A DNA stretch of 64,000 nucleotides from positions 29,854 through 93,853 of the forward strand of contig JAUYIB010000007.1 of assembly GCA_030688425.1 (NCBI GenBank), given 5' to 3'. Each line of letters opens with the position of its first letter. The first letter of the stretch is position 1. Positions 28,422-60,800 of the stretch are shown here, piece after piece. A model generated the notes under the pieces. The model did no database searches and was not told the origin of the DNA. It saw nothing but the letters and a program-made list of their open reading frames with translations. The position numbers were made by a program, and so were the translations under genes. The DNA is from Candidatus Omnitrophota bacterium. GTDB lineage: Bacteria; Omnitrophota; Gorgyraeia; Zapsychrales; JANLHA01.

Positions 28422-28473
28422 GGCGGCGGGAAGGCCGGCAACTCATAAAGGACGATGGTAAGGCGGAATTTTT

Positions 28474-33443: not shown

Positions 33444-33543
33444 TCGTCTTGAATATTACGGATTCTTGCGTTCAGCCTTTGTTTGTTTTTCCCGGTCCTT
33501 TGTTGTGGTCTCGTCCGTTCGAAAGCCCATAGGATAATCATCC

Positions 33544-34398: not shown

Positions 34399-34473
34399 TG
34401 AGCGCATCATTTATGGAGCGAAAGCGAACATAAATGATTTGCGCGAATTAACCCCACTGTGACGTGGGGTTAA
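34396..34473. repeat. Intergenic repeat element, copy B
   Basis: TAATGAGCGCAT lies at 34396-34407. The hairpin GCGCATCATTTAT / ATAAATGATTTGCGC has loop GGAGCGAAAGCGAAC (34415-34429). GAATTAACCCC lies at 34445-34455. A 10-bp hairpin TTAACCCCAC-TGTGAC-GTGGGGTTAA spans 34448-34473. Confidence 0.55.
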
Positions 34474-34580
34474 TGTGGTTCAATGCTTGTTCCCCCGATC
34501 CCCGCAAAAACCATCGGTTTTTTGCGGGATACCGGAACAATCGACGGACATATCCAAAGGGGCTCATCGCCAAACGATTT

Positions 34581-36887: not shown

Positions 36888-39800
36888 ATGACCGACAGAT
36901 TGGACAAAATCGAGGACCAGATCGCTGTTGCTAATGGCAGTAATAGTAATACTGCTATTAGCTCGGAGCTCGCTTTGTCCCCTGAATTTTCTGCCGAACC
37001 AATCCCTTATAAGAGCCGTTTCAAGACCTGGATGAGGGCCGTAGCCCTCCTTGTTGTCATGACGTTTCTGCCCGAGCAGATCAGCTGGGCTTTCAATTAT
37101 AATCCTGCCGTTATTTGGAACATCGAAGATCAGAAATATATTGAACCGGAGTTTTCCAACGTTCAATCCACCTCTGCCGAGCAGATGGTGTCGTTGCGTA
37201 TCGCTGCCGGCATCAAGAATTTCCTGGGCCAAATTGTTGACAAGCAGGACACCCGCGTTCAAATCGCGCTTCCTGGAATTTCTCAGTCCGAAGACCCTTC
37301 CCGCAGCGTTATTGTTGAATCCAAAGTCACGATTTCCCAAGAGCATGTCCGCGATATTGCCGCTTGGTTGCGGGACCCCGCGATCCATCCCCTGAACTGC
37401 GGTGTTTATGCCTTGCGCGACCTTTTGGCGCAGCGCCAGGTGAACGTCAATTTGGAGGATCTTTCCCTGGCCACGCTGCTGGTGGATTTGCTCAATGACA
37501 TTGTCCGCCCCGGAGAGCAAAAGCTCAAAACGTCCCTTTACTCGATTCACCAGATCGTCAATTCCTACGGCCTGGACTTTAAGGCCGTTAAAGTCGACCC
37601 CCAACAGATCCTCAAACTGAACACCCCGTTTATCGCAAATTACGAGTCCGAACATTTTGTCACGGTCAACGCCGTTGATGAAACCAACGTCTATTTCACG
37701 GATATCGGCCGGACAAAAGTTGAGCCCAGGGAAAGTTTTGCCAAGAAATTGAGCGGGTATGTTTTGGCCGCGGATTTGGACAAAACAGATGTGGCTTATG
37801 AGCCGGTATCGGATGCGGCCATGGCGTTTGTCTGGGGGAACAGGTGGGTGAATCATTCTGATGATCTGCCTGGTTTGATGGACGGCGGCGATATCGCGCT
37901 CCAGGTGGGGATGGAGCTTCTCCAATTGGCGATGATCTTCATTTCGCCGATCAGTTTCTTAACATATATCGTTTCGCATATCATGAGCCTCCTGGTGACC
38001 GCCGGTGTCGTGGACCAGGACACGGCGTTTATTGTCACCACGGCCTTTTCCGCGGCGGTGGCGGCCTTCTCAATCATCTCGGCCGGCCTTCAGGCCGCCG
38101 GACAAGCAGGGACAGAAGCGGGGAAGACGGCGGCGACGGAAACAGGGAAAACTGTAGCGACGGAAACGGGAAAAGCGGTGGTCACGGAAACGGGGAAAAC
38201 GGTGGCTGAAAGTGCGGTCGTCACCACCGCTCAGGTTGGCGCACAGACCGCTCTGCAAGCGATCGGGAATATTTTTATCCAAATCGGGAAGGCCATTTGG
38301 GACGCGATCAAGAGCGTGTGGGAGGCGATCAAAGGGATTTTCACGGGCGAGACATTTACGAAGTTGTGGAGCAACATCGCGGACAACTTTACCATGATCG
38401 GGGGAACGTCAGGCGGCGCGGCGGGTGCGGGCGCGCCAGGAGTGACGGGTGCCGTCACAAACGCTGCTTCTTCCAACGCCATGAAGGCCGCGGCCGAAAG
38501 CGCGGCCGCCAAAAGCTTGGCGGGTGCGGCGACTAAATTGACCAGCGGTCAGATCGCGCAGTTGGTGGTGAAGGCTTTGGCCGCAGGCGCGATCAAGGCC
38601 ATTGTGCAGTTGAAATTGCCCGAGATCCTGGAGGAGGCCCTGGGGGATGATTTTGATCCTATCCTGAAGCAGGCGATCGTCGGCATCGCGACTTCGGTGG
38701 GGTCTGAGCTGGCCATGGGGACTTTCGCGGGCATCGCGGACCAGTTCGGTTCGCCGGTCCTGACCCAGGCCATGGGCATGGGCGAGTGGAAATTGGGCGC
38801 GGACGGCAAGACCGGTTATTTTGATCCCAGTTTCGGACAGGGCATTGCCGAGGCGTTAAAATCCATTCCCGAACGTTTCGTGTATGCCGGCATGCGCGCC
38901 TTGGGACAGATCCTTTTGAAAGAAATCGATGAGGAAAAATTTGGTCCTGACACGCTTGCTTCACAGGCATTCGGTGCCATGATCGGTGATCTCGGGGCTC
39001 TCACATTCAGGGCTTTTACGGATGATCTCGGTTTTTCTAATCCGGTGGAAGTGAAAAAGGATGAGAAAGGGTATTACATAGAACACTCCCTCGGCAAGGA
39101 CGCAGAGGGCAAGAGTATAAAAACACAGAAAGAATATATCACAGTTGATCCGGCGAAAGGGGATCACGTCGTCGCGGCCGGGAACACGGGCAGGACGTAT
39201 TTAATGACTGAGAATAAGTTTTTGTCCGCTTTCACGTCCCGGGTGTCCCAGGGGGCGTTTGCTATGGCCGTGGCCTACGGCGTGGATGAGCTCGCGGGCC
39301 GCGACGCCACGGACCAGTTTAAAATGCTTGCCGGCCGCATGATCGGTTTTATGTCGCAACAGGTCGTAACCGCTTTTGGCCCTGTTGTGGTTGATTTCTT
39401 CTCCGGAAAGAATATTGCCGCTCCGGGAAAGAGCGTTGTTGCCGATGGGGAAAACGCACAGTCTGCCCTTCAATACGCAGGCAATAACTTTTTGCATAAC
39501 TTTACGCATTTTGTGGATGACGACCTGGGTTATGGCGGAGCCAGCACTAAGCAGGCCTGGACCAGGAGCGGTTTCTCGAGCCTCCAGCAGTTCTCGCAGT
39601 TTATGGACCATTTTGTGGACGCGACCGGATTCAACCAGCAATGGGCCGAGGGGGTCAAGGATTATCGCAAGCAGCTTGAGAAGCAGAATCAGGAGCGGCC
39701 TGAAGGCGAAAGGTATGACGAAGAAACCATCGACACCATGGTGAATCTCTATGCCATGGAAGCCCATCGGGCTTCTCAAGCCGGATTCTTTAATACCAAA

Positions 39801-42800
39801 TTCGCCGGCGGCATTATCAGCCCCGATCAATATTCCGCCGGCGGTATTGTTGAGGGCATGAAGACCACACTGGAATATATCTTTTCCGCGATCATCTTGA
39901 GCTATTCTCCCACCTCCCGGGTGGAGGACCCCGCAACGGGCCAGATGGTCGCTAATCCGGATTCAAAAGCTGTCAAAATTTTCAGGGATTGGCTTGGGTT
40001 CACATACCGGCCTATTCTGAAGCGGGCATCCAGGGACGGGAAGACCAATGTTGTTGAGGAATATGTATGCGCCCCGGGCCAGCCTTGCCGCGGCCATACG
40101 GCAGGCAACAAAGACGTCCTTTTCCTCTTCACGAAATTCAGCGGCAAGGGGATGAATAACTATTTCTTTAATTTCGAAGCAGATCAAACGGTTATCGATA
40201 CACCGTGGGTCAATCTTGAGACCGGTGAAATGTATGTGATCAGCGGCGAGTATCAGTCATGGTTCGGGGGGGCGGCTGACGAAACGTTCAAGACAGCCGA
40301 CGGGCAGAGCCACCGGTTCATCGGCGGAGGCGGGGAGGCGGAAACGGCCTGGGACAATGACAGGCACGATAAGAAGATTTCCGGTGTTCCGGAGAATATG
40401 TCGAGTCTGGGCATTGCTTCTTACGGCCACAGCGCGCTTTATTCCGAAGGCGCTGTCGCTTACACGGCTGAGAAAGACGGCGACAGGATCGTCACGTCGG
40501 CCGCATCTTCGACGAATTATGTGGGTTCGGATGGCACGATGAACACGCAATTTTCCCAATTCAACCCCTGGAGCGGAAAGAAACCGACGGGCGACGACAG
40601 CTTCCTTCTTGCGCTGGCGGCCGCCCTGTTTGCGGGCGTGGATCCCGCAACCGGCCGGTTCATCGTGGATCAGGACGCCGTCAACCGGGATCCCGCCGGA
40701 GCGGTTGGGGCGCTTTTTGATCTGGCGAGGGGGCTTTTTCCCGATGATGCTAATTTGGCGTATAAGACCACAGATGAGAATGGTAACACAGTTATTCAAA
40801 CGAGTAACAACCTGGTGCTCGCCCTGATCGAAAACACGACACGCGTCATCGATAAATCCAAGAAGTTCATTCAGGACCGCGGCGAGCCGATTATTTATAG
40901 CGATGAGTCGCAAGGGGTCTATGCCATGGCGGCGCCCGCGGATGCGAATGAGACAGCCGGGATCCTTGCAGAGGCAAAAGGAAAGGGGATGTACGCCTGG
41001 GTGGGGAGCGGGCCGGAGGACGAGGGGAAGATCTTTATTTCCAGCCAAGGTCTCAAAGAATCTGTTAACGAGACGGTCATCACCATTGCCCCAAACACGG
41101 AGCTCGGTAAGGCGCTGTCGAGAGCGGTGAGAGGCGTTGAGGGAACTGAGACCCAGTCCGTGCAGACGACGTGGATGAGGCTGGGGACAGACGGCCTTCC
41201 CGACCGCCGATTTATTATCGCCGATCGGCTTTTGCAGAACTCCTGGGAAACCTTCAAGGATGGCCATGAGGAAGCTCCAGTTTTCATCCCTACCATGAAG
41301 GCGGGGGAACTGGCCCTCAGCGCCGGACTGGGAGAGATCCTGCCGTCCTTGCAGAACACGTTGGATTTGATCAAAAAGGAGCCGGGCAAATCCATCGTTT
41401 TTGAGGGAGAGGGTGATTTGGCCCAGAAGCTGCCGGGAACGAAATTGTCGGTTGAGGCACAAGTCGCGGCCTTGAAGAAATTTAAGGAAGCTGTGGCGGC
41501 GCAGTCCGGGGTCGGAGCTTCGCCGGAGGAATGGCCGGAGGGGGATTACAGCACAGATAAGCTCGTTACGGTTTTGCAGGGTGCGAATTATTCTCCAGAA
41601 AAAATTGCCGAAGCGATGGCCAAGCCGCCGGCCGAGCAGGCGGTGATGATAGCGGAGGTTGATGCGAGCTTCCAACTGGAACCGGCTGACCCGAGAGTGA
41701 AGAATGAAAGGTTGGCGGAGTTCCGCAAGGAAGCGATCGATCAGGTTGTGGCGGATACCAGTGTCAAACAAGGATTCGGCGCGGCCCTCAACGACAATCC
41801 TGATCAGGTGAACCTGAAAGTGGCGGACAAGCCGCTGTTCCTGAATGATTACGGGCAGGCTTATTTTGAGGGACAGACGACAATTCTTGATTCCGAGAAT
41901 AGACCCGTGGTCGTGGGTAATGTTAACACGGTGATCTCGCTCTCCGGCAGCCGGGAAACAAGGGGCGAAGACAGCATCCGCACCGTCTTTACGCTGGCCA
42001 ACCCCAACGGCAACCCGACCGTAGTGAATGAAAACGGAGAGATTGTCGATCTGGGTTCCGGCGTCAAGGCCCAGGGGATTGCCCAGGGCGAAGGGGTTAC
42101 GTTCGGCGATCTGTATCAGGGATATTTCGGCGTCAAGCCCAGCGGCGCAAACACGGTGTATCTTGCCGAGGCTTTTTATACAGTGAAGGAAGGGACAGGC
42201 GAGATCGAGGCAGGCCGGGTGTATTCGAAATACGCCAATGGCAGCATTAATAGAGAGGCCTATGGCCTGGTCACCTCTGGGGCGGAAAAAGGCGACTCGT
42301 TCACCTTTTCCATGGTTGGCGAATATATCAACCGGGCCGGCGAAAAATCCGGAACGGAAGGGGCCAGCGGCTCTTCTGTTGTCAAGGCCGAGATCATTGA
42401 TACGAACGTGCAATTGCTGACCGCCCAGGACGGGGCTGCGGTCCTGCTCGACAACCGTCCGAAAGCGGCCGCTAAAGATGGCCAGGCCAGCACTGGCGGT
42501 AACCAGCCGGGGGCGTATGAGATCCATCCGTTCAGCTTGATGGTCAGGGATTTCAACGCCATGCTCGGGCCGGGCAGTGTCATCGTTTACGGCAGCCAGT
42601 TTGGGCAGAGCCCGCGGTCGGACGATGAAAAGATCAAGAATGCCATCGTCAAGGTCAATGACGACGGCCGGGTGACTTTCTATCTGAACGGCAAAGAAGC
42701 GACGCTGGCTTTCGACGGAAAGATTTTCCACGTCACGCCGCCCACGGCGGTCATCCGCGCCGCCAAACCTACGGCGGCCGGCCAGGCGGCTGTGGCAACG

Positions 42801-45800
42801 GCAGAAGTCATTTTCGGAAAAGACAGCCTGGCCGCCATGGCGTTGACCACGGTTTTGGGCACGGAGTATGTGACCCAGGTGGCCAAGCTCGAGGGTATGT
42901 TGCAGGACGCCGAAGTCCTTCTGGGGGATGCCAGCGGCAGGACGCACAGCGGTCCGTTCGCTGTTATGGTCGAAGACCAGGTGAAAACAAAAGTCAGCGG
43001 CAAGGCATTTTACACGGCGTCTCCGGTAATTGAGCAGACAGCGGTCTCCCTGCTGGGCGGCACGAAAAAGGATCAAATGGTGCTGACCGTTGATCCCGAT
43101 TATATTGCGCCAAACGCCGACGCGAGTAAAGTCCACTCCAGCGGTATTTCCGGGACCGGCAGCCAATTGATCTTCACGGAGCAGGGCACCGTTGAAGGGG
43201 TCTTCAGCGGAGTGGTGAACGCCGTCGGCCCGGCCGTCACTACGGCCCCCAACGCCTGGACCATGGAAGCCGCCCCTGTTACCACGGCCGTCTTCCCTAT
43301 ATTTATGATGATTCCGTTGCTTGGTAAAGTGCAAAATCCGGACGATCAGAAAAAGGACCAGTCCATCCTCGCGAAATCAGGCCAAAAGAAGGAGGGGTAC
43401 GATATTGTTGGTATCTTCGATGAGCTTGATCCGGTCGGGACAGAGACAGTCAATGGTCAGGCATGGAATATCTATGAGGTGGATATCTCTCAAAAATCTT
43501 TTTCAGGACAATTGTTTGCGGGAGAAGCCACCGGCAACAACGCCCAGAATTTTGTCGGGGTTGAGGTTGTTCAGAATGCGGACGGGACCATCACGCATAA
43601 AGCGAAACTCATGCCCCAGGGGAAAGACATCGTTTTCAACAGGGAAGGCGCCGGTCAAGGCCGCGTGACCTATCAGGCTGATCCTTTCCAATACGGCTTT
43701 GGGAGCCGGACCACCGGAGAAGACGGCAGGGAGAAAATCACTTACGCGTCCATGACCCAGTCCCTGGACAGCTTTTATCTTGAGAACCGCCAGGAAAGCA
43801 TGATTACCCCGAACGCGACCAATTCCAACGATCGCGTCGTCAAATTGAATGACGAAGGCGACGTGGCCAGCGTGGATGCCGGCCTTTTCAAGAATTCTCT
43901 GTTTGTCGGCGGCGTGAGAAAGGAAGGGCAGGATGCCGCAGCTCCGCTTGTTAATGCTATTAACGCGTTTTTGCCCGGAGGCGCTCAATTGTCTTTGCCG
44001 GAAGGTCTGGAATTTTCTGTCCCGGTTTCCCAGCAGTTGACCTACATGGGCAACGGCGCCATTTCCATCAAAGACGGTCAGTTAGTGGTCTTGGACGGCA
44101 GCGAGACCATGATCGTTTCTGAAGAGGGGACGAAATCGAGCCTGGTGAACGGCGGGCAGGACATGGTCAAGATGCGCCAGACGCGCGTCGGGTATCAGAA
44201 GGACGGCATCCAGGAATATTCTGTTTTGATCCAGACCGAATATCCGGAAGTCTTGTCGGGCGGGGAAGTCACCGGCAGCAAGGCGAAACTGGTTCTTCCG
44301 GCGGCAGCCGGTTTGATGAGGGAAGTTTCTGCGGAAAGAGATTACACCCAGCCGAATCTCAACAACGCGGACGTTCAGCCGGATTTTGATATCGTGAGGG
44401 GCGATGTGAAGGTTTCCGGATCCGACATCTTGCTGGCCGGCCAGGTGTGGGGCAAAGTGACGCCGTTCTGGTCGCAGGACGGAGACATCGCCAGCAGCTA
44501 CATCAAAGTCCAGTTCGGTCAGGTGGCGGACACCTATAATCCTTTTAACGTTGATATCAAGATCGAGCAGCTGGAAAGTTTCATGAAGGCGGTGGATAAG
44601 ACGTATCGCGGTGGCGCAGCGACCGCAGAGCAGCTGCAGTCCGGCATGAAAGAGGCCGGTTACAAGATTTCAAATGACGACGCGACCAAACTGGCCAAGG
44701 TGTTCAACGAAAGCCGTGCAGCCAACACCCCCGAAGCCAGAGAGGCCTTTAAGCAGGCCAGCCAGCAGGTTCTGAATGACAAGAATGAAAATCCCGCCGC
44801 CCAGGGGCAGGGCCCGCCCGGGGAAGTCGCCCTTGTCGGCCATGTTCCTGGCACGGAGTATAATTTCTTTACCGCCGCCGATCCGAGCCAGTTCCGACCC
44901 ACCGGAGACAGTGCAACGAGTCCAACCCAACCGAATGCCCCCGGGATGGATTCCCAAAGCAATACCAATAGACCTCCCTCAAAGATTGAAGCACCAGCCC
45001 CTCAAGCCGCAGATAATCAAGGCCAAATGGACATGCTCGCCTTGGCCAAGCCGACCGTTTTACCGGAACTTCCTCCCGAATCTCCGGTTCAGCCGGAACA
45101 GCAGCCCGATGCTTCTCAAAGTGAGAAATTATTGCGATCCGCCGCAGACATTTTAAAAAACTGGACAAATTCTATGGGCGCCGCGGCGGGCGACAATCTC
45201 GGCGAACCTTTCCCGGCAGAAAGCGATAGGCCGGCGACGTTGATTTTGGGCAATGTCATTTCCAATCGTGCGGCGTTGAAGCCCAGTGCGGACGGTTCAG
45301 GGGTTGATTCTCTGACCATCCAGGGTGACGGTGTTGTGCCGGAAACCAAGGAAACTTCGGAATTCGCCAAAGCCGCGGAAACCGGCCAGCCGTTTTTGAC
45401 CATGCAGATGGAGAAGGATCCTGCGACGGGCCAGAATGTGTTTCGAATCAACGGCAAGAATGTCGACCCTAAGGTCATGAACGAATTCGCCCAAAGCTTC
45501 TCGGAATATGTTTCCAGCCAATCCAAGGGCGACGTGCAGATCCTTGTTTCTAATGATTCTTCCAGCACAACCGTGATTCCGCAGGCCACGGTCACGGGGG
45601 GTGAACTGGCCATGGCTGGTTCTGCTCCTAATGCCGGCGCGGCCCAGAGCGAGGCGCCGTTGACGCCGGAAAAACAGAAACTCATGAATTTCCTGAACAA
45701 TCCGTCGTCCCAACTGACGCCGGCGGTTCCAATAGCAGCGGGAGAACTCACCGAGGTTCCCGGAGGTTCTCCCTCCAGCATGGGAGCGTCGGACAAGGCC

Positions 45801-48800
45801 AGCCCTGACCAGCAGATTCCCGAAGGTGTGGAGGGCGGCCTGGTGTTCCGTCTCGGCCAGTGGGACGCGAAGCGGGGCCGCAATGTCTTTACCGGTTTTG
45901 TCACGCATGCCCCGGGCGGGATCGGCAGCTATTACGGCATTGACAAAAGCGCCGCAGACACGGCGACCGGGATCCCCACAACGCTTTCTTTCCAGAGCAG
46001 CACCTACTCGGACAGCGTCAAGATCAGTCTCTATCGCAAGGACGCCAACAGCACGGATTCCCGGTTTGTCGGTATTTACATCGATGACAAGGGGCAGAAG
46101 ATTCCGTTCAACATGAAAAATTACGCCGGCCTCGGGGTCATCGAGGGGTTGAAGTATGGCCTGACGGATCTGGCGTCCAACCGCCAGGCGCTGGATGAGA
46201 ATTTTGTTTTTGCCGTTAGTGAATTCGCCAAGATTTTCAACTCCTATGGATTTGCCGGCAGCAAAGACGCCCCGTTCGAGGCATTCCTGCAGGGGATGAA
46301 AAACAAACAGGAGGGGCAGACGCCGTATAACTTCGGCGAGAATTTTGTCAACGCCCTGGTGCAGGCCGAGATGACGCACGCGATTGAGCTGTATAAGAAG
46401 GCCTTGAGCTCCAGGGATATGAAGGAATACAACGCGTATAAGAATAAGAAAATCGACGCGTTAGCTCTTCCTCTTGCTGAAGCTCTGGGTCTGAACAGCA
46501 ATGATCAGCTCAAGACCGAGGTCAAGAACTTGGTCTGGCAGCAGTTGCTCGAGCTGGAAGGCCGGATCAGGATGGGCGGCGCGGACGTTGCCGGCTATGC
46601 GTCTGCAGAAGATTCCGTGAAGCCGGGCCTCCAGGAGTTCCGTAATATCCAGTTCGCGAAGACAGAGAAAGAGATCGGCAGCTTCACGACCTCCGGCAGC
46701 GACGGGAGAGATATTCTCGCGGCCATCCCGAAAGAAGAAATGGCAGAGATCAATAAACTGGCCTTGGCCCAGGATGTCCGAGAGATCGCCGCCCAGGCTG
46801 GGGACGAAACCGCCCGGCAGGCGGTCTTGAATAATCCGTCTTTGTCAGAAGATGGCAAAGTCAATCTTGTTAAAGGGATTTTGGACATCTCATCTCCGGC
46901 CAGCCTTGAAGAAGCAAAGCAAAGGGTTTTGAATGATCCGAGTCTTTCTGCCGATCAGAAGGCTGGCCTGGCAAACAAGTCCCCTGAAGAAGTTGCTTTG
47001 GCTCAGCCGGACCTTTGGTTGAAGAACAGCGCTTCCGCCGCGCAAGTTGCGTTGGTCCGTTCCGACCTCTGGGCCGGCATCGGTACCGCAAAATTGGTTT
47101 TGACAGCCGCGGACGGCAGCCCGATCCGCCGCAATCAGACCGATACGAATATGATGGGCGATCTGGCCCTGGTGACGAAGAACGACGAAGGCAAATATGT
47201 GTATCTCAACGATCAGGGCGAAAAAGTCGTGACCGAAACCCTGCCAGCCAACGCCCAGGCCCTGATGTTTTATAATCCGCAGAAAAAATTGAACGGCGCG
47301 CAGACAGGCGAAGGGTTCATCAACTGGCAGTTTGCCGGCGGCGAGGCGCGCGTCCTGAAGGACGGCGTTGACGGCGGAGTCTGGGGCCCGGCCAACTGGA
47401 CGTTCGTGGAAGGCCCGGACGGCAATGCCCTGACAGAAACAAAGACCGGCTTGATTCTGGTGAACGAAAAAGGAACGCCGGTCCTGCAGAACGGTCAATT
47501 TGTTCATCTGACCAAACGCGACGATGGAAACTTTGTGGACGCTGAAGGTAACGTGGTCCCTGGAAATGGCTTTGTCGGGCCGTTGCAGCCCGGCCAGGCT
47601 CTGGCGAAAGTTGCGCCGCTGGGTATTTATTTGACGGGCGCCCAGCAGGGTGTCAGCACGGCGGCGCTGTCTGACGGGTCGGGGTGGAACGAAAACGCCG
47701 GCATCGGGCAGAAGATCCGGTTCAACGACCAGGGCGCCTGGAATCTGCTGTTGGAAAACGGCCGCGTGGTCTTACCGGGCGACTATTCGACAATGAATAA
47801 GGTTGGTGATGCTGGCGCCTTGGGCACGGGTCTCGGGTTCTTCTCCCCGAACACTCCTCAAGGGAAGGGCGGCGCCAATCAAGAGCCAAAACTCTCTTTA
47901 ACGCCCCATGTCGCCAAGGACGGGATTCTTGATAACGGGAATATTGTCGCTGCGTTGGGCCAGGGCATCGCCAACGGCGGCAAAGATTCCACCGCCGGCC
48001 TTGAGTTCGTCGGCCTGAACATGGTCAGGGGACGGGCCCAGTTCGCTTCGACCCTCGGCCAGCAGGGTGTTTCGATCTCTGCGGATCAGAACGAAGTCAA
48101 CGCGGCGAGAAGGTGGCTGACCACCTTAGGCCAGGGCGGCGGCGAAGAGTTGACGATGATGGCCACCGGCCAGAAATTGATTATCATGCCGACCCTGCCG
48201 GTTCTGGAAAGGAAGATCAATCAGATCCGCGCGGCCAAGACGGACGGCGTTGTGGTGGATACGGATACTCAGAGGATGGGTGTGGTTTCCAAGAAAGATT
48301 TTAACGCTGCTCCGGACGCCAAGCTTGGGTTCAAAACGCCTGTCAGAAGCGGGCAGTTGATCGTTCAGGGGACAGTTAAAGGCGAAGATGGCAAGAATAA
48401 AATCGTATTCAAAGTGATCGACGCCGAACGGCTTATGGGCGCTCCGGAGAAGTGGATCCAGGGGACATTTCTGAATCCCAAGTCGGGGAAAACGGAAATT
48501 GTTTATGTCAGGGCCTCGGATTGGGAACAGCGCAATTTGACCGACAGATTGAACATTCCCTACCAGGGGGAATACGGCGGGTTCCGGCACACGCATGCGC
48601 TGGTGACCATCGCGGGGCTCAGCAAGCAGTTTGAGCTGGAAGAAATGAAGGCCGAGTTGGTTTCCGAGGGCGGTATCCGTGCCGGCATGCGCGTTGACCA
48701 GCTGTTATATGCCGCGGAAGACGATGTCACGGGATCGGACAATATCGACATGTATTTAACGGATGCGAAAGGGCACAGGGTCGCCGGAACAAAAGTGTCC

Positions 48801-51800
48801 GTGGATATTGGCGAGATCAAGCTGGGCACGACCGACGCCGAAGTCGCGTTTAACGGGCACCAGGTCGAGCTCGCCAGGGGGGTCTCGCTGGAAGATGTCC
48901 TGGCTGGGCGCGAGGCAACTCAGGCAGAATGGGAGAGGGGCTTTGAAGTTTCCTGGTATCAGAAGCTGTGGAGGAGCGACAACAGAATCGTGCGTGTGCC
49001 CGTGGCCGATGAGAGCGGGAATGTGTCCTATCTTTACCGCGAAGTTGATGACGGGACATTCGAGGGAAAAATCAAAGGCGAGCCCATCGAGATCTCTTCT
49101 TTGGATTATTTTGGCGAGAACGCCAATGTGAGGCTGGCAAATGAGTCGGCCGCGGTCGGGTTCTGGGGCCACCTGTTTGACAGCTTTGACACCGACCGGA
49201 ATGACGACAACATGGTCGCGGCCAGTTTTGACGCCGGAGGCAATGCTCATGTTGGGATCATCGATTTTGAGCCGACCCTGCTCGGCCATCTGGTCACCGA
49301 TGAATATGCGGACTCCAAGACCGGCGATGTGGTTGTCGCCCGCGGGGTTCTGAACAGAGATGACGGCGTGAAGGAATTCTTCAAGACCGGCGATTCCGCG
49401 GACACGATGGCCACATGGATCGGATCGATCGACGCGATCACCGCCCCGATCACCGTGGCGCTGGCGCTGACCGGCGTGGGTAACCTCGCCAACGCCGGCA
49501 AGGAAGGGGCGAAGCAGGCGGGGATCCGCATGGCGACCGAAATGGTCAAACGAAAGCTTGCCACCGACGCAGCCAAGATCCTTTTGAGCGAGACAGGAAA
49601 AGCGGTTGGGAGAGTGGGCTTGAACTATGCGAAAAATTATTTGGTCATTTCCGGCGTTTCCCTGGGGCTGGAAGAAGCGATCACCTACCATTATACCGGC
49701 GGCCTGATGTCCTCCGACAACGTGGTCCGCAGTCTTTTGTTGTCCCACGGGTTCACGGCGGCGGCCCGCGGCCTTAAGACCGTGGCCCTGGCGGAGCAAT
49801 TGAAAACATTGCAGGCCGCTGCACAGACCTCGAAGTTTTTTAACACCCCGGCCCGCGCGGCGGCTTCGAGCTTGGCGATCACGACCGCGGCGACAACCGG
49901 TGTATCCATCGCGGGAGAGATTGTTTCCAAGGGGGGCTGGGACAGGGCGGATGTTAAAACGGCCGCGATCCGCGGCGCCTTGTTGGGGCCGGTTGTTTTC
50001 AGCTCCATTTACGGCGGCAGCAAGCTGGTCGCATTTTCAGGCGGCGGGATCGCGGATTACGGCAAGCTGGCGCTACAAACGGCTGTGTTGCCGGGGGTGA
50101 CGTATGGCGCGTACGGATTTGGAACATCCATCGCGGATGACGTTCAAGCCGGGCGCGAGATCAGCTTTGCCGACGCGGCTTTTAAAGGCGGTAAATACGG
50201 GCTCTGGGCGATGGGGGTCGGCGCAGGGTTGACTCTCGGTTCTCGAGGGGTTCTTGCTTTCAGCAAGAGCGGAAAAAGCCTGGTTGCAGTTGCCAAGACC
50301 GTGAAAACCCCGGCCATGCAGCCGTACAATTCTCTTACATCCGCGCAGAAGTTCGCATATGTGCGCAATGTTATTTTATGGCGGGCAGCGGGAGGGGGGG
50401 CAGGATTGGCGGCAGGGAATGCTTACAGTCTTGCGACTCGCGGGGATTTTCTCCCGACCGACGCGAATATTGCCGCTTTTGCGGCCGGCGCGATTTTCAT
50501 TAAACTCCGCAACCCCAAACAATATTTTGCCGCTGGCATTCAAAGATTGGGCGGCGTCACGGTTGCTGGTGAAGGTGCGGCGGCAAGCAAAATTCCGATT
50601 TTGGCCATTCCCAAAATGGTTTCGCACGGCGCCACCGGTTTCGCCGGCGCCGGCGTTCTTTGGGAGGGGACCAAGGGTGTTATCGGTGGCGTTGCCCGCT
50701 ATATCGACGGAGATCCCGGGATGTATTCCAAGGCCGAGCAGTTCGATTCCAAATTCCAGTTGATGAGCACGTATGCCAACACTATCGGTGGAGGCATGAG
50801 TGCAGGTCTTTGGATGGGGCCGCTCATCGGGTTCGCCATGGCCGGCGCAAAGACGCACTTCGGAAATCTTGTTATGGAGAACCAGGGTTTTGTAGGCACT
50901 ACCTCATTGGTGATCAGGGCGGCCCGCAACGGATTCCGGCCCGGCACGGTGGAGAAGCTCGCCACGCAATATACCAAGACAAATTCCAGCAACTGGCTGC
51001 ACAAAGCTTTGGGGCTGACCAAAACAGCCGCCGGAGAACTGGAAGGAAATTATTTGGCCAAGCAGGTGGCCATGGTCGATCACCTGGCGGTTTTCCTGGG
51101 AGCGACCGATATCCTGAACGCGGTTAATTCCGATGCCCTGACAGCCCTGGCCCTGGAAGATCCGGAGATGGCTAAGAAGATTTCCGGGGACCATCATCCT
51201 TTGAGTCAGAAGGGTCAGGAAGAGATTATGAAGACGGCCGGTGAGATCGCCCTCTGGGAAGCCATCGTGCTCCTGCCCCAGCCGGGCGGCTGGCCGCAGG
51301 CCAAAGGCCCAAGAGCTCCGCCGGAATTGGGTTATCACGATGGTCCCGGTTATCACGATGGCCCCGGCTATCATGGTTCCGGTGAAGGAAAGGGCCAACC
51401 GCGCACTTTCCGCGACGCGTTTGGTTATTTTCGTGAAGGTGAAGACTCCTTTGCATACCGGGAAAGACGTTCTCCCACCCTTTTGCAGGACCCTCAAGCC
51501 CAGCTTGATCCTAAAAAAGAAATTGACCGTTATCTTGGCACGTTGCCTGAAGGCGAAAGGGCGGAGCTGGATAGCTATAGCCAGCAGGCAGGACCAATGC
51601 ATCCTGATACGGAAGCGGTTGTTGCCGTGCCTGTGGCCGGCCATCAGGAGGCCAAGAACATTTACCGCACACTTTCCAATTTTGCCGATCAGCGCGATTC
51701 CCGCGGCAGCAGGATCAATCCCAACTCATTTGAGATCCTGCTTTTTGTCAACCATCCGGAAGGGACCAGCGCCGAGGCGACATTGGCGGAGGTCGCCAGA

Positions 51801-54800
51801 TTCAAACAGGATAATCCGAATGTGAACGTCCGCGTCGTGCATCAGACATTCGGCGCGGGGGAATTCACGATCGGCCGTGTGAGAAAATCAACCACCGACC
51901 TGGTTTTGAAGAGATCTCAGGAGCGCCCGGAAGGATCTGACAAAGAGGTCGTTATTATCAGCAATGACGCGGATATGAAGTCGATGTCCCCGATCTATAT
52001 CAGTTCCGTTGTGGAAGCGTTTAAGGCCAATCCTCGGGCCGATGCCATGCTCGGCAAGATTGATTGGGACAATGCCGCTTATGAGAAGAGTCCGTTTGTG
52101 CACATCGGGACCAGGATGTTCCAATATTTGGATGCCATTTATCGCGGAAAACACAAGAGGATTGGATCCAGCGGCGCCAACTATGCTTTCCGTGGATCGA
52201 CGTATTCAGCGGTCGGGGGTTATTTTAGGTCTGATCGCATCACAGAAGACGTCAGATTGGGTGAGTTGTTCAGATCGGCAAGAGGAGGGAACCGGGACTC
52301 TTATAGAGGAAGATTCCTGTATGGCAGCGCCAAAATGGAAATTCAGACAGATGCCCGCCGCGCCATGGATGCGGTCGCGCGGGGCCTTTCTCCGGCAGAG
52401 CAGTGGAGCGGGGGAAACTTCGGCGCCAACGATGCCTTGAGAATGAAGGACTGGCTTGCCGGCGAAGGTTTTGATTTGGCCCAAATCAGGACCCCCGCCT
52501 TTAGGGCTAAACTGCAGGATATGTTCCGGAGGACTTTGTATGAATATCATCCCAATTTCGGGCCGGCTGAGAGACGGGTTCTCGGATTCATGGGCATTGA
52601 ATACACCCTCGAAAAAGCGTCGAGAGTATCGCCTGAAGGACAGAATGCTGTTAAGCAGCGGATTGCAGAGCTGGATGCTCAACGCCTCGCAGCCTTAGAA
52701 AAGGGGAATACGGAGGGCGCCGGAAAGATTGAAGGGCAGATCAGTGATCTGAGTAATATTGTAAAAAGGATGCAGGAGGTCACCACCCTCCCCGTCTTTA
52801 CTGATGTTTCGAAATTGGCCGCCGGGTTGGAAGGTTGGCATCAGGCCCGCGGCAATAAACCGGCCTCGCCTGAGAGAGGTCCGGCTCCGTCCACCGGCCC
52901 GCCGTCCGGCAAGGGCGGCCGCGAGACCCAAGGCTTTGCCTTCGACAACGGCCAGCAGAAGACCACCCGTTTTGCGGAGGGCAACGGCGAGACCTGGCAG
53001 GGCGTTGTGGACGGGCATACGCAGGGTCTGGATGCCAGTATCCATGCCGGACTGAAGAACGGCACCATCCAGCGCCGGACCGTGACCTATCAGGGCTCGA
53101 AATACCGGACGTATGAATTTTTTGACGTGAAGACCGGCGAAGTGAAGCTCCGCATCTTCCGCGGCAACGGCGTGAACCGTTATGAATATGTTGACCCGTC
53201 CGCGGAAACGACCATGGGCCGCAAGGGCGGCGGGTATGTGTCCCTGGCGCCGAGGGATGCTATCGGGACCCGTCAGGGCAAGGACAAGATCGTCATTGTC
53301 CATGACGGCAGTGAAGCGGTCCGTAACCATGAGATGACCGAAGCCCGCGTCATTCTCCAGCAGAGATCTTTCCGGGACGGCCGCATGAGAGCGTCTTCCG
53401 CCGAGCACGCCCGCAATCTTACCGAAAAAGATTCTCACGATTATGTCGCTGATGTGGTCGGTTTCCGCGGCGAGGAAACGTCCAGATTCTCGGGGATGTT
53501 GAGGCCTGTTGAACCGGCGATGTCCGGCCCGCGGATGGAACGCGTCCAGCCGCCTGCCATGGCCCCCCCTGTGGAAGCGCCGCTGTTCCGTCTGCCTACC
53601 ACGAACGCCCCGCTGTTACCTCCCGGCCTTTCCCGCGGCAGGGCTTCCGAAGGCCGCGAGGTCATCGCCTTCGCGAGCGACAATTTTGACAGCAAGAAAG
53701 AACCCACTAAAGACCGAGCCGATCGCTTGGCGAAAGCCGCGAAGGACCTCTATGCGGGGAAACCGATCCAAGATGCTGGTCTGTCTCCGAAAGAAACGAA
53801 ATATGCCAAAGAAATTCATTCTATTATGCGAACTATGGAGGCGGAGGGAGATGGTAAAGGCGGATCGATATCTCTCAAAGGAAGAGACGAGCAGGTATTC
53901 AACATCGCTTCGTTTTATGTTACAGCAAAGGAAACCGGCAAGATTACCGTCTCCAGCGACACGGGTTCTGGTAAGTCCGAAGCGGCCTTGGGTGTTATCA
54001 AACATTTCCAAAGAAGTGATCCGGATTTGACCATTGTGGCGGCTTTTCCGCAGAAAGTGGTCGGCGAAGTTGTCGGCCGTGCGGACATGGCCGGCGCCAA
54101 TGATGGAAGGGTCAACAAAAAATTCGAGAAAGGCAAAATCAATGTTACGTCTCTCGACGGAGTCTTCGAAGTTTTGCATGAAACGGTGCGGACCGGCGAG
54201 AAGCTCGATTCCAGACGAACCATCCTGCTGGTTGATGAAACGGATAAACTGTTCCGTCATTCTTCTCATGTTACAGGTAGCCGGGAAGAGGGAAGCGCAC
54301 TGTTAGAGTTGCAGAAGGAAGGGAATCCGCAGGCGACCCGGGCTGTTGAATCGTTGGATCGCAACATGCGGCAGTTTCAGCAGGCGAATCAGTCACTGGA
54401 AGAAATGGTCGCGGAAAAAGGATTGCATCAGGTTTTAGTCAATGACGGTTTTAACGTAACGTTCAAGTCGGAATCGGGACGCAAGGAGTTTCTCCAAAGA
54501 TTCCGCTCGAGATTGAGTGGGGAGCAGGAGGCGGTTCCAGAGGCGGAGTTGCTGAAGAGGGCAGATGCGCTTGCCAAAGAGGTTTGGGAGGGGATGTATC
54601 CGGGGCAAAAGCCCGATGCCAATTCTCAGAACGGATTCGTTTTGTATAAGGAGGGAGGGTTTACAGCGCCTAATACTATTCCTTCCGACAGAACAGCCGC
54701 TCAGGCAAAAGTGGTCAGGTCAGGCGGGACATTGGAACATTTTATCAATGCCACTATGTCTGAGACCCGTAATCCGACCACAGCTCATGATGTAGTTAAT

Positions 54801-57800
54801 GCATTTGATCGGTTCCTGGGTGCAACAGCAACCGCAGAATCAACCCGGATGTCCCATGAAATAGAGGGCGTTGAAATTGTCCAGAAAGCGCCGGAAAAAG
54901 ATTATGTGAAAGATGTTAAGCCGGTCTTGGATTCCAGGGCCAGAAAAGGTGAGTCCTATACTGACGCTATTCTGGAGAATTTGTCTAGGCCCGAGTTGAG
55001 CGAGGAAGGGCGGATAACCCTTGCCTCCACATTTTTGGCAAAAGCTGTTGATGATACTGTCAGCCGGCTGCGCTCTAAAGCGCAAGCCGAAGGTCGGGCC
55101 CCTGAGTATATTGAAGGAGAAGAGGCCTATCGGCATCAGCGCGGAGACAAAGAGATTGTTACTCTGGTCGCGCGGGAAGATCCTAATAATCCTGGTTTTC
55201 TGAACGAAGGGAGTGAAAAAGCGGTCAGGTCGTTGATCGAGCGTATTCAGAATAATCCCAATGAAGAAGCGAATATTCTTGTATTGGGGTTGAGCAGCGG
55301 TTCTAACCTGTTGGGTATCGTTGATGCGCTCAAGGTTAAAATCCGGGCAAATCCGGCAGAGGCGCGCAATTTACCTAAAGTCAATGAATTGTTTTTTGGG
55401 ATTGAGGCAGAAGCTGAGATTGGCCAGTTTATGAGCCGCGCTAAAGAAGACCCGCAGACTGGCCGCCTTTCCCCGAGTAAGATTCGGGAAGCGATCATCT
55501 TAATCGAGAATGACCCGCATATACCGAGCGCTGAATATGCTGCTGCAAAAGCTGCTTTGGAAATCGCTGATCCGGCTGCACGAGAGCAGGCTGTGCGCTC
55601 CGCCTTTTCAAGAATGATCCGGGGACATCAAGCCCGGATGGAAGCGAATAGCATCATGGGCAACGTGCATACTACGTCGCAGACTGCTGGAAGAATTTCT
55701 AAGCCGGAATTGCTTGCCAAGCTGGATCAGCATCTCCGTGAAACAGACCAGAGAACAACAAGGGATCATTTGGAGGCGTCTGGGCAGAAGCATGTTCAAG
55801 TGCCGACAACTTCAGGCCAGGGGTATGAAACCTTCGTTCTTTCTTCCTCCAGTCCTGCGGGGATAGAAGCCATCAGCGTCACCAACACGGGCGATGAGAA
55901 CAATAAGCTCATCGGCATCAACCAGACACTGAACTACCGCTCCGGGCTGTTCTATCACAAGGACGACGAAGAGCAGAAGAACCCGATCGCCATGGCCGTC
56001 ACCACCGACGTCGGCGGCAAGCCGCAGACGCAGAAGATGTCGGTCGAGGCGGTGTCCCCGGCCCAGTCTTCGCTCATCGGCGGGACGACAGGGCTGGCCG
56101 TGAAAGTTACCGACGCCAAGATTACCGGGACGCCGGTTTCCCTGGGTGACCAGATTACCTTTACGAAAGGGGTCGGTGTTGTGAGCGCGGCGGGCGCCAG
56201 GGAGCCCAAGACGATTATCGTCGGCGGCCGGTTCGGAGAGCAGATCGGGGCCAATCAGTTCCGCCTGCCGTATGAGGAGGACGGAACCACCACGCTGCAG
56301 CTGGTGCGCAATGACAAGAATGAAATTGCGGATGTCGAACGGGCCACCATTGCGGCCGGCAAAAAAGCTATCGATTTCGGCGGCTTTGTGTTGAGCCCGG
56401 CCCAGACCTGGAACCTCAAAAACAATTTGATCCAGGATGCCAAGGGCCGGAACGTCAAGGCGGTGCGGGCCATTCCGACTGCTCTGGGCGTGACCACCAT
56501 GGCCTTTGATATTGGCGAGACCTATCAGATCGGCAGAGACGTTGTTGACCTCAAAGGAGTGGACGGAGACAAGAGGATCACGGTGGGGATGAGCCCGACC
56601 TATCGGGTGACCGAAAGGGAAGACGGCATGGACGAGCTGGTCCGGCAGGACATTGAACTGCCGCAGGACCGCGTGGAGATCAGGACGCCGGGTGGCGTGT
56701 TAACCTTGAGCAAGGGAGATTATAGGGAAAGCAGCGGCGTTGTCCGCGACAGCAGCGGGAACATCAAGGGGATGATTTTTGACAACGGGCATGCCAGCGC
56801 TGTTTCCAACGGCAAGCTGGTCCTCAGTGATTATTCCAAAGCTGGGGTCGGGCTGAAGATCTCAGCCGGCGTTCAGCAGGCGATCGATAAAGGGAAGGCC
56901 GAGTTTGAAACGATCGAGATGGAAGTCTCTCCGGAGCTCGCGGCGGATAAGCAGTTCGGCGGGCATTTCCTGGATGTTTTAAAAACCGCTAGTGTGAAGG
57001 CAGACGGTACGCGCGTTGTCACAACATCCCCAGTTGCATTGAAATCTTATCTGGACCAGGGCCAGGGTGAGAAATATGTTCAGGAGACATTCCTGGGGGC
57101 TTTGAACAACGCTCCCATCAAGTGGGCTTATAAGGGCCGCGAAGGGCTCAAGGTCACGTCCGTTGCCGATAACCCCGGCAGCCATCCTGTTCTTTCGAAT
57201 GCGGTTCAGACGGCCGCCGCTCATTGGAAAGGCGTGGCCGATAACATGGCGGATGATGAGGTCCTGCCTGTGCAGTTGCGCAGCGGTGAAACGCTGGATC
57301 TGACCCGCGCCCAGATCCAGGCGATGGCGACCCATCTGGCCAAGATGCAGACCGGCGGCGAAACCCTTACGACAGGACAGAAGTCGCACGGCGTGATGAT
57401 GATCGAAGGGTATAGCGCCGAAATCCAGGAAAAGATGGTGGAAGACATCCTGCAGAATCCGGCGGCCTACGAGATCAAGGAAGGATTTACTCCGACACAG
57501 AAACTGCGGATCGCCCATTTTATGGCTGACAAGATGCTCCAGGGACACCAGGGGACCGGCGGCGACGTGACCGGTCGAGAAGGCCGGTACGTGTATCTAT
57601 TCGATGTCGGCCGCCCGGACATCGGAAAGCAGATCTTCAAAGGCAGGGAAGACCTGCTGGGGCGGCTTGAGCAGTCCAAACCGGCCGGGCTTTCCGAAGC
57701 GGATGAAATGGCGATGATCATCGAGCACGAAGCGCTGAGCTTCCTGGGCAAGGAAAGCGACCCGGCCAACAGAGTGACCCTCTCGCACGATGAGGTTGTG

Positions 57801-60800
57801 GACATCCAGAGAGCCCTGGTCGAATTTGATCTCGCTGCCGACAAGTCCGTCTTTAAGAAAAAGGCCGAGCCGGCCGCATACGCTTCCGCGGGCACCGGCA
57901 GAACCATGGGCGCGTCCGAGAAATCAATGTTAAAAAAGCTGACGCCCGTTGCTCCGGCAACTTCCATGGCTGGCCTGCAGACGGCTGCAAAACCTCAGAC
58001 GTTGAGTGTCCAAACAACAACGGCAGATGTCAGTTCCGCCGCCGGCCAGGTGAAGGTGCCGGACATCAAGGCCCCGCCTGCCGGCGTTCAGCCGTCCGCT
58101 GTTCCTCCGGCCGCCCAGATCAAGGCCGCCACCCCGCTTCTTCCTCCGGGTCTGACCCCGGCGATGCTCCCGCTGAATTTAACCCAGGCCCCCAAGTCCG
58201 ACGCGCAGAAGATCGCTTCCGCCCAGCGCCAGGAAAGCCAGAGCCCGTCTTCCTTGCTGATCCGTCCGAGCGTTCCGGAAATTCCGCGCACCCAGTCCCC
58301 TGTTGTGGCCATGGCCTCGGCCGCGCCGCAGATGCAGTCGGTGAAAGGGGCGGCGGTCGCTTCCAGCAACATCTCTGACACGACCGGCCGCGGCAGCCAG
58401 GCGCCTTCGGTGGAACGCCAGACGTCGTTTGTGTCTGCCCAGCTCACCGATCGTTACGGCAACGTTATCGGATCCATGCAGAAGGGCATGAGTTCCACTT
58501 CCGCTCAACCCGGGACGGTCGGCCAGGTCGTCATGGCTTCCCAGAAGGAAGGCGCTCAGCCGCAGCCTGGGATCGACATTTCCAAAGATATGGCCAGCGT
58601 TTTCGGATTGAGACCTGTCGAGCCCGGCGAGCTGTCTTCCATCACGAACCCGCAGGCGTCCAAGGCCACGGCCGCGAGAGACCGGGAGTTGACCTCTCCC
58701 AGAGCCAAGCAGCAGAGAGAGCTGACCAGCGTCCGCGGGAAAGCGAAGACGGCCAAAGATAATTCCATGCTGTCCAAGAAGACAGTCGCCGCCGGAATGT
58801 TGGCCGGGGCTTTGGCGATGAACACACTGGGCGCGGATTTGGATGCCGTCCGTCGCACGACAATTTTTGAGAGACCCACGATCACAAAAGGAACGAATGA
58901 CGCAATCCCGCTGATCGTCAATTTCGGAAGACAAAAAGTCGACGTCTCGGTCATGTACAACTCAAGGAAGAGCATGGATGTTAATGATCCTGCGACCGTC
59001 AAGAAATTGGAGCGTGTCGCCGATGTCTTTGTGCAGGTCCGTGCCTTGGCCCCGGAGGCCTTTCATCTTATTAAGACGATCAGGCTCGATAACACCGATC
59101 TCCAAACCGCACAGGCAGGCCCGGATGACGGTTCCATCGATGTCCATGTGGATGACCTTTTCAAGCTCAACCCCACCAACCGCATGGAACTGGCGATGGG
59201 CCTTAAGGACGGCGAGGAAAAAGCGTTGATCACTGTGATTCATGAATTGGGTCATTTGGTCCAGGGGACCATGACCAAGGCCGAGCAGCGGGAGTGGTCG
59301 AGGTTGTCCTTCCCGAAGGCTACCGCCGGCGATTGGGCCGATGAGGCGTTTGGCCAGGCTTATGCAGATGTTGTGCTGAGAAGAAAAACATCGGTGGATT
59401 ATTATTATCAGCGCGGCAAGCGGGAGATCAAAGATAAAGATCGTGCCAGGGCCGAAAAAGAAAACGCGAAAATGCGCGCTTTCGTTGGCCGCGTCGTTGA
59501 TCGCCGCAAGGCCGCATGGGAAAAACGTTCGGCCTTTAATAATATCCAAAATGATACGGTCGGATTTGTTCAGATCCCGTCGGACATCTCCTGGGGGGAA
59601 GTCAGCCCCCGTATCGGGTCCCCATCGGCTATCGGCGACAAGTCGATGCTGTTGTCAAAGAAGCTGGCCGCCATTAAGAATCCGATATTCGAAGAAGCCG
59701 GGTATCGCATCAATCCGCAGACGCTGTCCATCGAACCGGTTAAATTCAATAGTGATACCGAGAGACGTCAGGCGGTTTCCGCGAAGATTTCCGGCATTTT
59801 GGCCGACCCCAGCCGTTTGACAGCAATTCCAAAGGCCAAGGGCGACGCTGCCAAGGTTGAGACGATCTTAAGGATGGACGGGTATCAACAGCCGTCCGGC
59901 GAAGCTGTCCCGAGTTATATGGAAGTCGTTTCGGTTGACAACACCATGTATGTGCGAATTCCGGCCGTGGACAAGAAAACGGGAGACAGATACGTCAAGG
60001 CGAACGCCGTGGAGCTGGTCGGGTTGTTCAGAAATCTGAGCGGCCAGGAACTCGAAAGCCGTTCGAATTATTCCGGCCGCGAACTTCAGCCCGACACGTA
60101 CTGGGCGCCCAAGAAAGAATACGTCACCAAGCACCAGCCGTATTATCAAGAGAAGATCCACCCCATGGTCGCCCAGGCCATCGGCGCTTCCATCGAAGGC
60201 GGGCAGGTGACATCGCAGGAAGTGGATGTCCTGGATATAGGCGGGCATAACGGTGCGTTTATTGAATCGTTGAACAAGCAGTTGCCGAAAATTTTCCCTG
60301 ACCGGAAATTCAAATTTGAGCTGGTCGAGCGCAATGAGGGCAGTGTCAAGGCCGCCGAGGCCAAATTCAAGGGTGTGAAGAACGTGACCGTCCAGAAGCC
60401 GACGGACTTGACCCAGAAGGGTATTTCCGCCACCGGGCCGAAGGACGTGATCACCGCCATCGGCGTTTTGAACGAGCAGGTCATGTCGGCCGATGATGCA
60501 AGAAGCTTAGCGAAGCAGGCGTATGACACCTTAAAGCCGGGCGGGGTCTTCATCGTGACCGGCGGGACCCGCACGCATTTGACCGTCAGCGACCTGCAGT
60601 CCATGGGCTTTGAGGTCCGCAACACGAGCATCCCGAGCAACGTCGCCATGTTTGAAGGCGTTGAGGATTTGATGATCGCCGTGAAGACCGCCCCCGCTGC
60701 CCGTAGCAGCGCTTTGGCCCGTGCGACAACCAAAGCTGCCGACAAGTCGATGTTGAAGGACATGCGCCTTGCCAATCCGGCGGCGGAAAAGGCGCGCGTT

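Follow-up and report, generated by a model that had tools for sequence, protein, structure and literature searches.

The window analysed, 64,000 nucleotides of contig JAUYIB010000007.1 (Candidatus Omnitrophota bacterium, assembly GCA_030688425.1), contains the first part of a giant open reading frame (ORF), and the element under study is a glycine- and alanine-rich block inside that ORF (Table 1). The frame is free of stop codons from nt 36885 to 63998 (9,038 codons) and leaves the window at its end. The gene has at least 22,241 codons and is cut by the contig end in an independent contig (Logan contig SRR13727534_7920, 82,550 bp, groundwater metagenome; called product from window position 36975), located by exact look-up of the neighbouring TadB. 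The window covers 9,038 of at least 22,241 codons, about 40% of the protein or less. Both this independent 82.5-kb contig and a second groundwater run carry the DNA of the block unchanged. The product is a C39 or 'Archaeovorin-like' Omnitrophota protein, and the gene that encodes the block belongs with the Omnitrophota giants reported by West-Roberts et al. 2023, Seymour et al. 2023 and a 2026 preprint.

The block lies about 4,180–4,660 residues from the start, where an earlier note on this DNA had placed it, and contains both strings quoted in that note, GVGAGLTLGSRGVLAF at aa 4444–4459 (nt 50214–50261) and GGGMSAGLWMGPLIGFAMAGA at aa 4635–4655 (nt 50787–50849). Alanine accounts for 17.3% and glycine for 14.8% of its residues (together 0.32; flanking regions about 0.21 and 0.185), aspartate and glutamate for 5.2%. 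The 500-residue window aa 4251–4750 has the highest Gly + Ala content and the lowest content of Asp, Glu, Lys and Arg in the protein. Of the 17 windows of 19 residues with a summed Hessa value of 7 or less, 7 fall within the 481 residues of the block (binomial P = 1.5e-5). The clustering of apolar stretches is real; the count of roughly ten stretches of 18–22 residues given earlier is generous, with five uncharged runs of at least 18 residues, seven Kyte–Doolittle (KD) peaks of at least 1.0 (values 1.16–1.57) and eight Goldman–Engelman–Steitz (GES) peaks of at least 0.6. Spacings of the GxxxG type, proposed as packing motifs, are present at a frequency not above that of shuffled sequences (13 against 10.3 ± 2.8; small-xxx-small 77 against 71.2 ± 5.1). 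A position between the long N-terminal region and the enzyme modules holds within the window; in a gene of at least 22,241 codons, the block lies in the first fifth.

Segment S1, a candidate stop-transfer anchor, is the most hydrophobic segment of the block on the KD scale. Its counterpart in the homologous contig L001 (described below), GVVDVASAVSMVLGVGVIG, has a KD value of 1.92 and is the sole block segment that stays transmembrane (TM)-like. The N-terminal flank of S1 contains no Lys or Arg and three Asp/Glu, and the following 119 residues (aa 4206–4324) contain 16 Lys/Arg against 8 Asp/Glu. In the alignment, an acidic N-terminal and a basic C-terminal flank are also seen around the counterpart; read from the residues, the flanks carry a classical stop-transfer signature in both proteins. 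Positive-inside alternation is clear at S1 and is absent across the later candidate segments of the block.

The composition of the protein changes at the block. Residues 620–4170 have a net charge of −135 and 3.3% Arg, residues 4800–9038 a net charge of +9 and 6.7% Arg, and the block itself a net charge of +20. The single best change point of the visible protein for Arg lies at aa 4840 (nt ~51402; support 4765–4859), where its content steps from 3.1% to 6.7% without a change in GC content (log-likelihood ratio 31.7 against a permutation null maximum of 6.9). This switch from acidic to neutral, Arg-rich sequence suggests different environments on the two sides of the block. The tandem-repeat linker stands directly after the conserved domain. 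Further downstream are a methyltransferase module, glycosyltransferase-like and NTPase-like signals below the family thresholds and an HExxH (zincin-like) motif. SecA_DEAD has no Pfam match in the visible 9 thousand amino acids (kaa); a weak DEAD signal only is observed. The downstream modules would be cytoplasmic, because the S-adenosylmethionine (SAM) methyltransferase and the GT-A-like and P-loop/DExD enzymes, if real, need cytoplasmic cofactors.

A homologue of the block is found in an exhaustive phmmer search of 1.84 billion (1.84e9) representatives. The one true homologue, P0001 (E 7.6e-36, 42% identity to aa 4505–4758), is a singleton cluster encoded on a 3.5-kb JGI contig, L001; the other match, P0002, is rejected as a low-complexity false match. 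Word-indexed searches with the block alone or with a two-sequence profile give no match and do not recover P0001 itself, probably because Gly/Ala-rich words saturate the index. L001 is collinear with aa 3766–4794 of the giant; identity is 27–37%, and 33% within the block. Hydropathy along the two proteins correlates with r = 0.64 (shift controls at most 0.23), and weak GES peaks are present at matching alignment positions. The collinearity of the block in a homologue stands, and TM character is kept by S1 only, in a test of segment conservation that rests on one homologue. The best-conserved sub-domain, aa 4545–4797, contains the polar motifs GATGFAxAGxxWEGTK, IGGGxxxGxxxGPxIGFAMA, ENQG, DHLAxFLGATD and HPLSxKGQ. 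Four scans of genome and metagenome contig collections reveal no further relative of the block. A hidden Markov model (HMM) profile of the block has no match in the fetched Omnitrophota C39 loci, in agreement with the published remark that these giant ORFs are poorly conserved (PMC10066038). Fragments of a relative of about 90–95% identity from a sediment metagenome differ by 25 synonymous and 11 non-synonymous codon changes over nt 49,507–51,269, and their indels restore the frame across the block and about 400 nt after it; because of the synonymous excess and the frame-restoring indels, the block is regarded as constrained coding sequence. None of the RNA runs checked for the block region contain it.

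The contig L001 has perfect inverted repeats at its ends (nt 2399–2542 with 3336–3479, 144 nt; nt 3–78 with 188–263, 76 nt). These repeats are fold-back assembly artefacts, so that the stop codon and the last 25 residues of P0001 are not real. The frame change at nt ~2400 of the contig is suspect. A homologous protein ending right after the block is rejected, the last 144 nt of L001 being the exact reverse complement of nt 2399–2542.

The block is read as a stop-transfer helix, S1, inserted co-translationally, followed by a conserved, basic, small-residue-rich helical domain that sits on or partly within the producer's membrane and marks a boundary of modules or of topology; this reading is given about an even chance of being correct. 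Insertion is probably co-translational, by the Sec/YidC machinery of the producer, and the block probably not a conditional translocator. The nascent chain would first be tethered by the signal anchor aa 52–70 and the hydrophobic hairpin aa 345–398, and the acidic, Arg-poor region of ~3,800 residues would next be exported. S1 (aa 4184–4205) would act as a stop-transfer helix with N-out/C-in orientation, fixed by the basic stretch behind it. The remaining block, aa ~4206–4797, would form an all-helical domain that is conserved, has a net positive charge, is rich in small residues and lies on or partly within the membrane, and the Pro/Gly linker would lead to modules with cofactor-dependent enzyme motifs on the cytoplasmic side. 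We infer the topology, the Sec-dependent insertion and the span count, which would be either 1 or a higher odd number of at most about 7. A membrane-related role of the block at a boundary is plausible.

Several observations weigh against this reading. Hydrophobicity is marginal: no 19-residue window of the block reaches KD 1.6, and simplified Hessa sums of +4 to +7 kcal/mol overlap those of soluble controls. Calibration was done with proteins of the same window, the TM proteins YidC, TadB, TadC and the ORF of 1,388 aa (ORF1388) and the soluble DnaN, GyrA, MDH, TadZ-TadA and others. TM helices of this set mostly have KD values of 1.6–3.7 (weakest YidC helices 1.4–1.5), and soluble proteins peak at 1.58 or below. 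Several segments of at least 19 residues with the hydrophobicity of genuine TM helices from this organism are not present in the block. AlphaFold2 (AF2), run on the block with a two-sequence alignment, gives no usable model (predicted local distance difference test, pLDDT, 31). The Arg step falls at the C-terminal end of the block and not at S1. The membrane may therefore be crossed further on, or the step may stem from the origin of the modules instead of from the compartment. In L001, block segments other than S1 carry 1–5 charged residues or have KD values below 1.1, and the block-equivalent region has Gly + Ala of 0.26 and Asp, Glu, Lys and Arg of 0.21, near the background of the protein. 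By their sequence, the polar motifs of aa 4545–4797 look like those of a folded soluble domain, not of anchor helices. An isolated hydrophobic segment at aa 2129–2147, if membrane-spanning, would reverse the topology proposed here.

A fully integral, multi-pass domain, with 5–7 small-residue-rich helices packed in the producer membrane and possibly a transport or channel function, is considered unlikely. It accords with a TopPred-like use of the GES scale, on which Ala, Gly, Thr and Ser score favourably: the block receives six 'certain' and two 'putative' TM calls (two false positives in 4,418 residues of soluble controls), and of ~20 segments with GES of at least 1.0 over the visible 9,038 residues, six are in the block, with the positions of the GES peaks kept in the homologue. 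A last crossing near aa 4634–4746 would agree with the Arg step at aa ~4840, clusters of TM helices are part of the published description of the class, and a relative, P0011, has Gly/Ala-rich hydrophobic helices after its N-terminal hairpin (e.g. LLGAGIGAIAGAALGCGIG, KD 1.77). Against it, every segment but S1 has KD and Hessa values within the range of soluble proteins, and charges are present inside most homologue segments; S12, which has the best GES value, reads FESGPTLGPIIGFAMAEA in the homologue, with only 14 uncharged residues and two Pro. GGGMSAGLWMGPLIGFAMAGA aligns with GGGFESGPTLGPIIGFAMAEA of L001, 14 uncharged residues between a Glu and two prolines, which by its residues appears too short and too kinked for a membrane span. 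Lys and Arg are plentiful in loops of both sides without alternation, six spans would leave the cofactor-dependent modules outside, and GxxxG is not enriched. The TM call depends on the scale, six helices by GES versus none above KD 1.6. According to West-Roberts et al. (10.1101/2023.11.21.568195), TMHMM and DeepTMHMM disagree on such giants and TM predictions are unreliable.

A soluble, Gly/Ala-rich, all-helical domain that crosses no membrane, its hydrophobic look being merely compositional, is judged improbable. Over the visible 9,038 residues, five windows reach KD 1.6 (one resembling a nucleotide-binding strand–turn) and none of them is in the block, and soluble controls reach 1.58. GxxxG is at the expectation from composition, helical hydrophobic moments are low, amphipathic helices are not found in the block, and the conserved motifs WEGTK, ENQG, DHLAxFLGATD and HPLSxKGQ are like those of a folded domain. 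The composition of the homologue is near ordinary, and the published warning on TM predictions in these proteins applies. The proposed check by TM and amphipathicity prediction is divided, GES calling helices, KD calling the region soluble or marginal, and no amphipathic helix being present. A soluble block is opposed by the KD value of 1.92 of the S1 counterpart, by asymmetric charged flanks conserved in both proteins, by the highly non-random cluster of apolar windows and by the change of composition, from acidic to neutral and Arg-rich, at the block.

The earlier note had taken the block for a conditional membrane-insertion or translocation element. That it enters a prey membrane on contact, as a pore or translocation element, and passes the downstream enzyme modules into the prey is quite unlikely. 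Nothing specific to such a role is found: no similarity to toxin families or other known translocation families is detected (Pfam E ≤ 1, NCBIfam E ≤ 0.01, PHROGs E ≤ 1, PDB profile E ≤ 10, none of which gives any match to the block), and amphipathic helices are absent. Conditional insertion is left unsupported and unrefuted, because marginal hydrophobicity, typical of such elements, is still compatible with it. Like toxin effectors, the downstream modules depend on cofactors of the cytoplasm (the Pfam-supported methyltransferase on SAM, the two weak matches on nucleotide sugar and NTP); the linker motif [DE][KQN]S[MIL]L, with eight copies against 0.11 expected, offers possible processing sites; the C39 protease appears catalytically intact by its residues; and Omnitrophota are thought to be predators or parasites using Tad pili and giant proteins (PMC10066038). 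The flanks of S1 are like those of an ordinary stop-transfer signal, the block is followed by at least 17,000 residues, much more than in any self-translocated cargo known, no linker motif is near the block and no processing protease is adjacent. The premise that TM helices are unlikely at such depth is contradicted by the protein class. A contact-dependent 'poly-effector', in which the block would insert in the prey membrane and methyltransferase, glycosyltransferase-like, NTPase-like and zincin-like modules, freed at the G-D-(K/Q)-S-M-L linkers, would act in the prey, is very unlikely.

Three further interpretations were rejected. A string of bacteriocin-like peptides that the C39 peptidase would cleave at Gly-Gly is set aside as a reading of the block, the number of Gly-Gly sites being that expected from composition and 8 of 9 sites not being conserved in the homologue. 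Paralogy of the block with the N-terminal Gly/Ala-rich region is unproven (composition-adjusted BLASTP E 0.11). An analogous block at a similar distance in L004, a long-read relative, is not accepted; the frames are broken there and the block HMM finds nothing.

The ryanodine receptor and other very large proteins have their TM domains near residue 4,500, so co-translational TM helices are possible thousands of residues into a protein. The receptor differs in being a eukaryotic ion channel, unrelated in sequence, with strongly hydrophobic helices. The giant ORF of V. archaeovorus LiM (39,678 aa) has 42 predicted TM helices (PMC10066038), and Omnitrophota proteins of at least 10 kaa have 22 on average (10.64898/2026.06.07.730766). 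A 122-kaa protein with 331 predicted TM helices is published for the class (PMC10066038 / 10.64898/2026.06.07.730766). Numerous TM regions are described in all full-length giants, and 'Archaeovorins' are such giants with a C39 peptidase at the N-terminus and many TM helices by prediction (10.1101/2023.11.21.568195). Clusters of internal TM segments have been described before in these giants, and the block alone is not a new kind of element. Shared with Archaeovorin-like giants are an ORF of at least 22 kaa, Omnitrophota-named N-terminal homologues, few recognisable domains and a C39 domain that adjoins a hydrophobic helix at the N-terminus. The gene also neighbours type II secretion system (T2SS)/Tad genes and lies close to the replication origin, a setting already published for the Tad locus of LiM. 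Internal clusters of segments predicted as TM are seen here on the GES scale. The present giant differs in having no SecA_DEAD match in the visible 9 kaa, with a weak DEAD-like P-loop only, in a block without detectable sequence relative in the fetched Omnitrophota loci and in a TM character that was tested and is marginal, not assumed.

Toxin delivery regions (hydrophobic region of TcdA/TcdB, T domain of diphtheria toxin, MARTX repeats) share with the block a run of weakly hydrophobic helices, set between a large non-enzymatic part and enzyme modules dependent on cytoplasmic cofactors, and a cysteine protease in the same polypeptide. The block differs from them in the lack of sequence or profile similarity, in a protease located 3,900 residues away and of the C39, not the cysteine protease domain (CPD), type, in the stop-transfer-like charge asymmetry of S1 and in a cargo of more than 17,000 residues. 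Glycine-zipper and GxxxG motifs share small-residue-rich apolar segments and several GxxxG and GxxxA spacings; here their frequency equals that expected from composition, and the homologue keeps only a minority of the Gly positions.

At ~650 residues the block is a compact test case, which combines a single candidate anchor helix with a conserved domain, a defined linker and a sharp boundary in composition. The published, purely computational claim that the giants weave through the membrane can be probed on it. Scale-dependent TM calls bear on the reported tens to hundreds of TM helices per giant. How bacteria make, thread and use proteins of tens of thousands of residues is the wider question.

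Table 1. Features of the window. Nucleotide positions are those of the window; residues (aa) are those of the giant protein.
Feature	Position (nt)	Strand	Residues or contents	Basis or remark
Tad/Flp pilus locus, directly upstream of the giant ORF	16520..35459	+	RcpC/CpaB, secretin-TonB_C fusion, TadZ-TadA fusion, small pilin-like ORFs, ORFs of 498 and 1,388 aa, TadB, TadC	Pfam
Giant ORF	36888..63998	+		ATG at 36888; gene caller start TTG at 36975; continues past window end
Predicted signal-anchor helix AVALLVVMTFLPEQISWAF	37038..37094	+	aa 52–70	KD 1.6; flanks basic (N), acidic (C)
Peptidase C39-like domain (double-glycine protease fold)	37302..37844	+		Pfam PF03412, E 2.4e-9
Strongly hydrophobic helical hairpin	37917..38078	+	aa 345–398	KD 1.97–2.0; Hessa sum 0.5–1.9
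Gly/Ala-rich block	49420..50860	+	aa ~4179–4659	Apolar-window cluster, P = 1.5e-5
Marginally apolar segments of the block		+	aa 4184, 4325, 4364, 4397, 4438, 4527, 4575, 4634	Hydropathy scales
S1 AITAPITVALALTGVGNLANAG, candidate stop-transfer anchor (N-out, C-in)	49434..49499	+	aa 4184–4205	KD 1.57, GES 1.39
Basic juxtamembrane stretch KEGAKQAGIRMATEMVKRKLATDAAKILLSETGKA	49500..49604	+	aa 4206–4240	Homologue counterpart KTIWEGGKKVGGEATKKAIIGGMKDGLKKGLRK
Best-conserved sub-domain	50517..51275	+	aa 4545–4797	phmmer, 42% identity to P0001; tblastn, 37% identity
Pro/Gly-rich linker with 18-nt tandem repeat	51276..51479	+	GYHDGP × 2.4 at nt 51330–51373	Tandem Repeats Finder (TRF)
Weak GT-A-like glycosyltransferase signal	51966..52271	+	NDAD, aa 5027–5030	Pfam Glyco_trans_2_3, E 0.093, below threshold
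NTPase motifs, P-loop DTGSGKSE and DExD-like LLVDETD	53958..54245	+	aa 5692–5787	Pfam DEAD, E 0.052, below threshold
Class I SAM-dependent methyltransferase	60231..60551	+		Pfam Methyltransf_12, E 2.3e-7, 31.9 bits against a cutoff of 30
[DE][KQN]S[MIL]L, copies 1–4	43356–43370, 57918–57932, 58758–58772, 59637–59651	+		Motif count
[DE][KQN]S[MIL]L, copies 5–8	60741–60755, 61908–61922, 62367–62381, 63849–63863	+		Motif count

The first 870 residues of the giant protein have 19 homologues, of which 13 of the 14 with a source name are named Candidatus Omnitrophica/Omnitrophota, and alignment with other Omnitrophota C39 giants is limited to the first ~750 residues. The motif of the helix aa 52–70 is kept in 20 homologues, and the AF2 helix has pLDDT of 73–79. 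The Cys (NCG, aa 172) and His (EHFV, aa 257) of the C39 domain are invariant across 20 Omnitrophota sequences; the AF2 model has pLDDT of 85–96 and its best Foldseek match is 6mpz (TM-score 0.60–0.67). If the helix before it is a signal anchor with N-in orientation, the domain would be extracytoplasmic, an unusual location for C39 domains. The hairpin is followed by a Gly/Ala/Thr-rich region up to ~aa 620. The isolated segment at aa 2129–2147, AAPVTTAVFPIFMMIPLLG (nt 43269–43325), is Pro-rich, with a KD value of 1.75, and 11 residues after it a copy of the linker motif, KKDQSILAK, is present.

The eight copies of [DE][KQN]S[MIL]L in the giant ORF are mostly of the form G-D-(K/Q)-S-M-L followed by Lys, the expectation of 0.11 being that of shuffled sequences. 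Two copies are followed by (E/Q)PxhWGGHhxTS, and PLLPP (three times) and PDIKAP (twice) are present in the same linkers. The copies appear to occupy linkers between modules and are candidate processing or docking sites.

The start of the window is near a chromosomal replication origin (yidC, dnaA, dnaN, dciA, gyrB, gyrA). In the Tad locus two fusions are unusual, a secretin with C-terminal TonB_C and a ParA/MinD-like TadZ joined to a TadA (T2SSE) ATPase; nt 17370–19319 and 19364–21550 hold both. The ORFs of 1,388 aa (28756–32922) and 498 aa (26925–28421), located between the pilin-like genes and TadB, have no Pfam match. Both are conserved, and ORFs of 1,129–1,708 aa occupy the syntenic position of the larger one in four relatives; the larger one has two extremely hydrophobic helices near its N-terminus (KD 3.3–3.7). 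The gene order TadB-TadC-C39 is observed in three of four fetched Omnitrophota contigs (L004–L007), and in L006 the genes are adjacent and inverted. Minus-strand ORFs at 48756–49799 and 50904–51644 lie within the 27-kb plus-strand frame and have no family support.

In the long-read relative, consecutive ORFs of 968, 1,943, 738 and 2,265 aa follow the C39 gene (L004:10001-22907). The changes of reading frame between the last three resemble assembly errors of the homopolymer type, and giant genes may be under-called in long-read assemblies like this one. Two stretches of the window, 22001–26000 and 36001–38000, have a low GC content (0.45 against ~0.56). The former spans an ORF of 584 aa with a weak HTH_32 match and the small pilin-like ORFs, the latter an AT-rich non-coding region of ~1.1 kb ahead of the giant gene.

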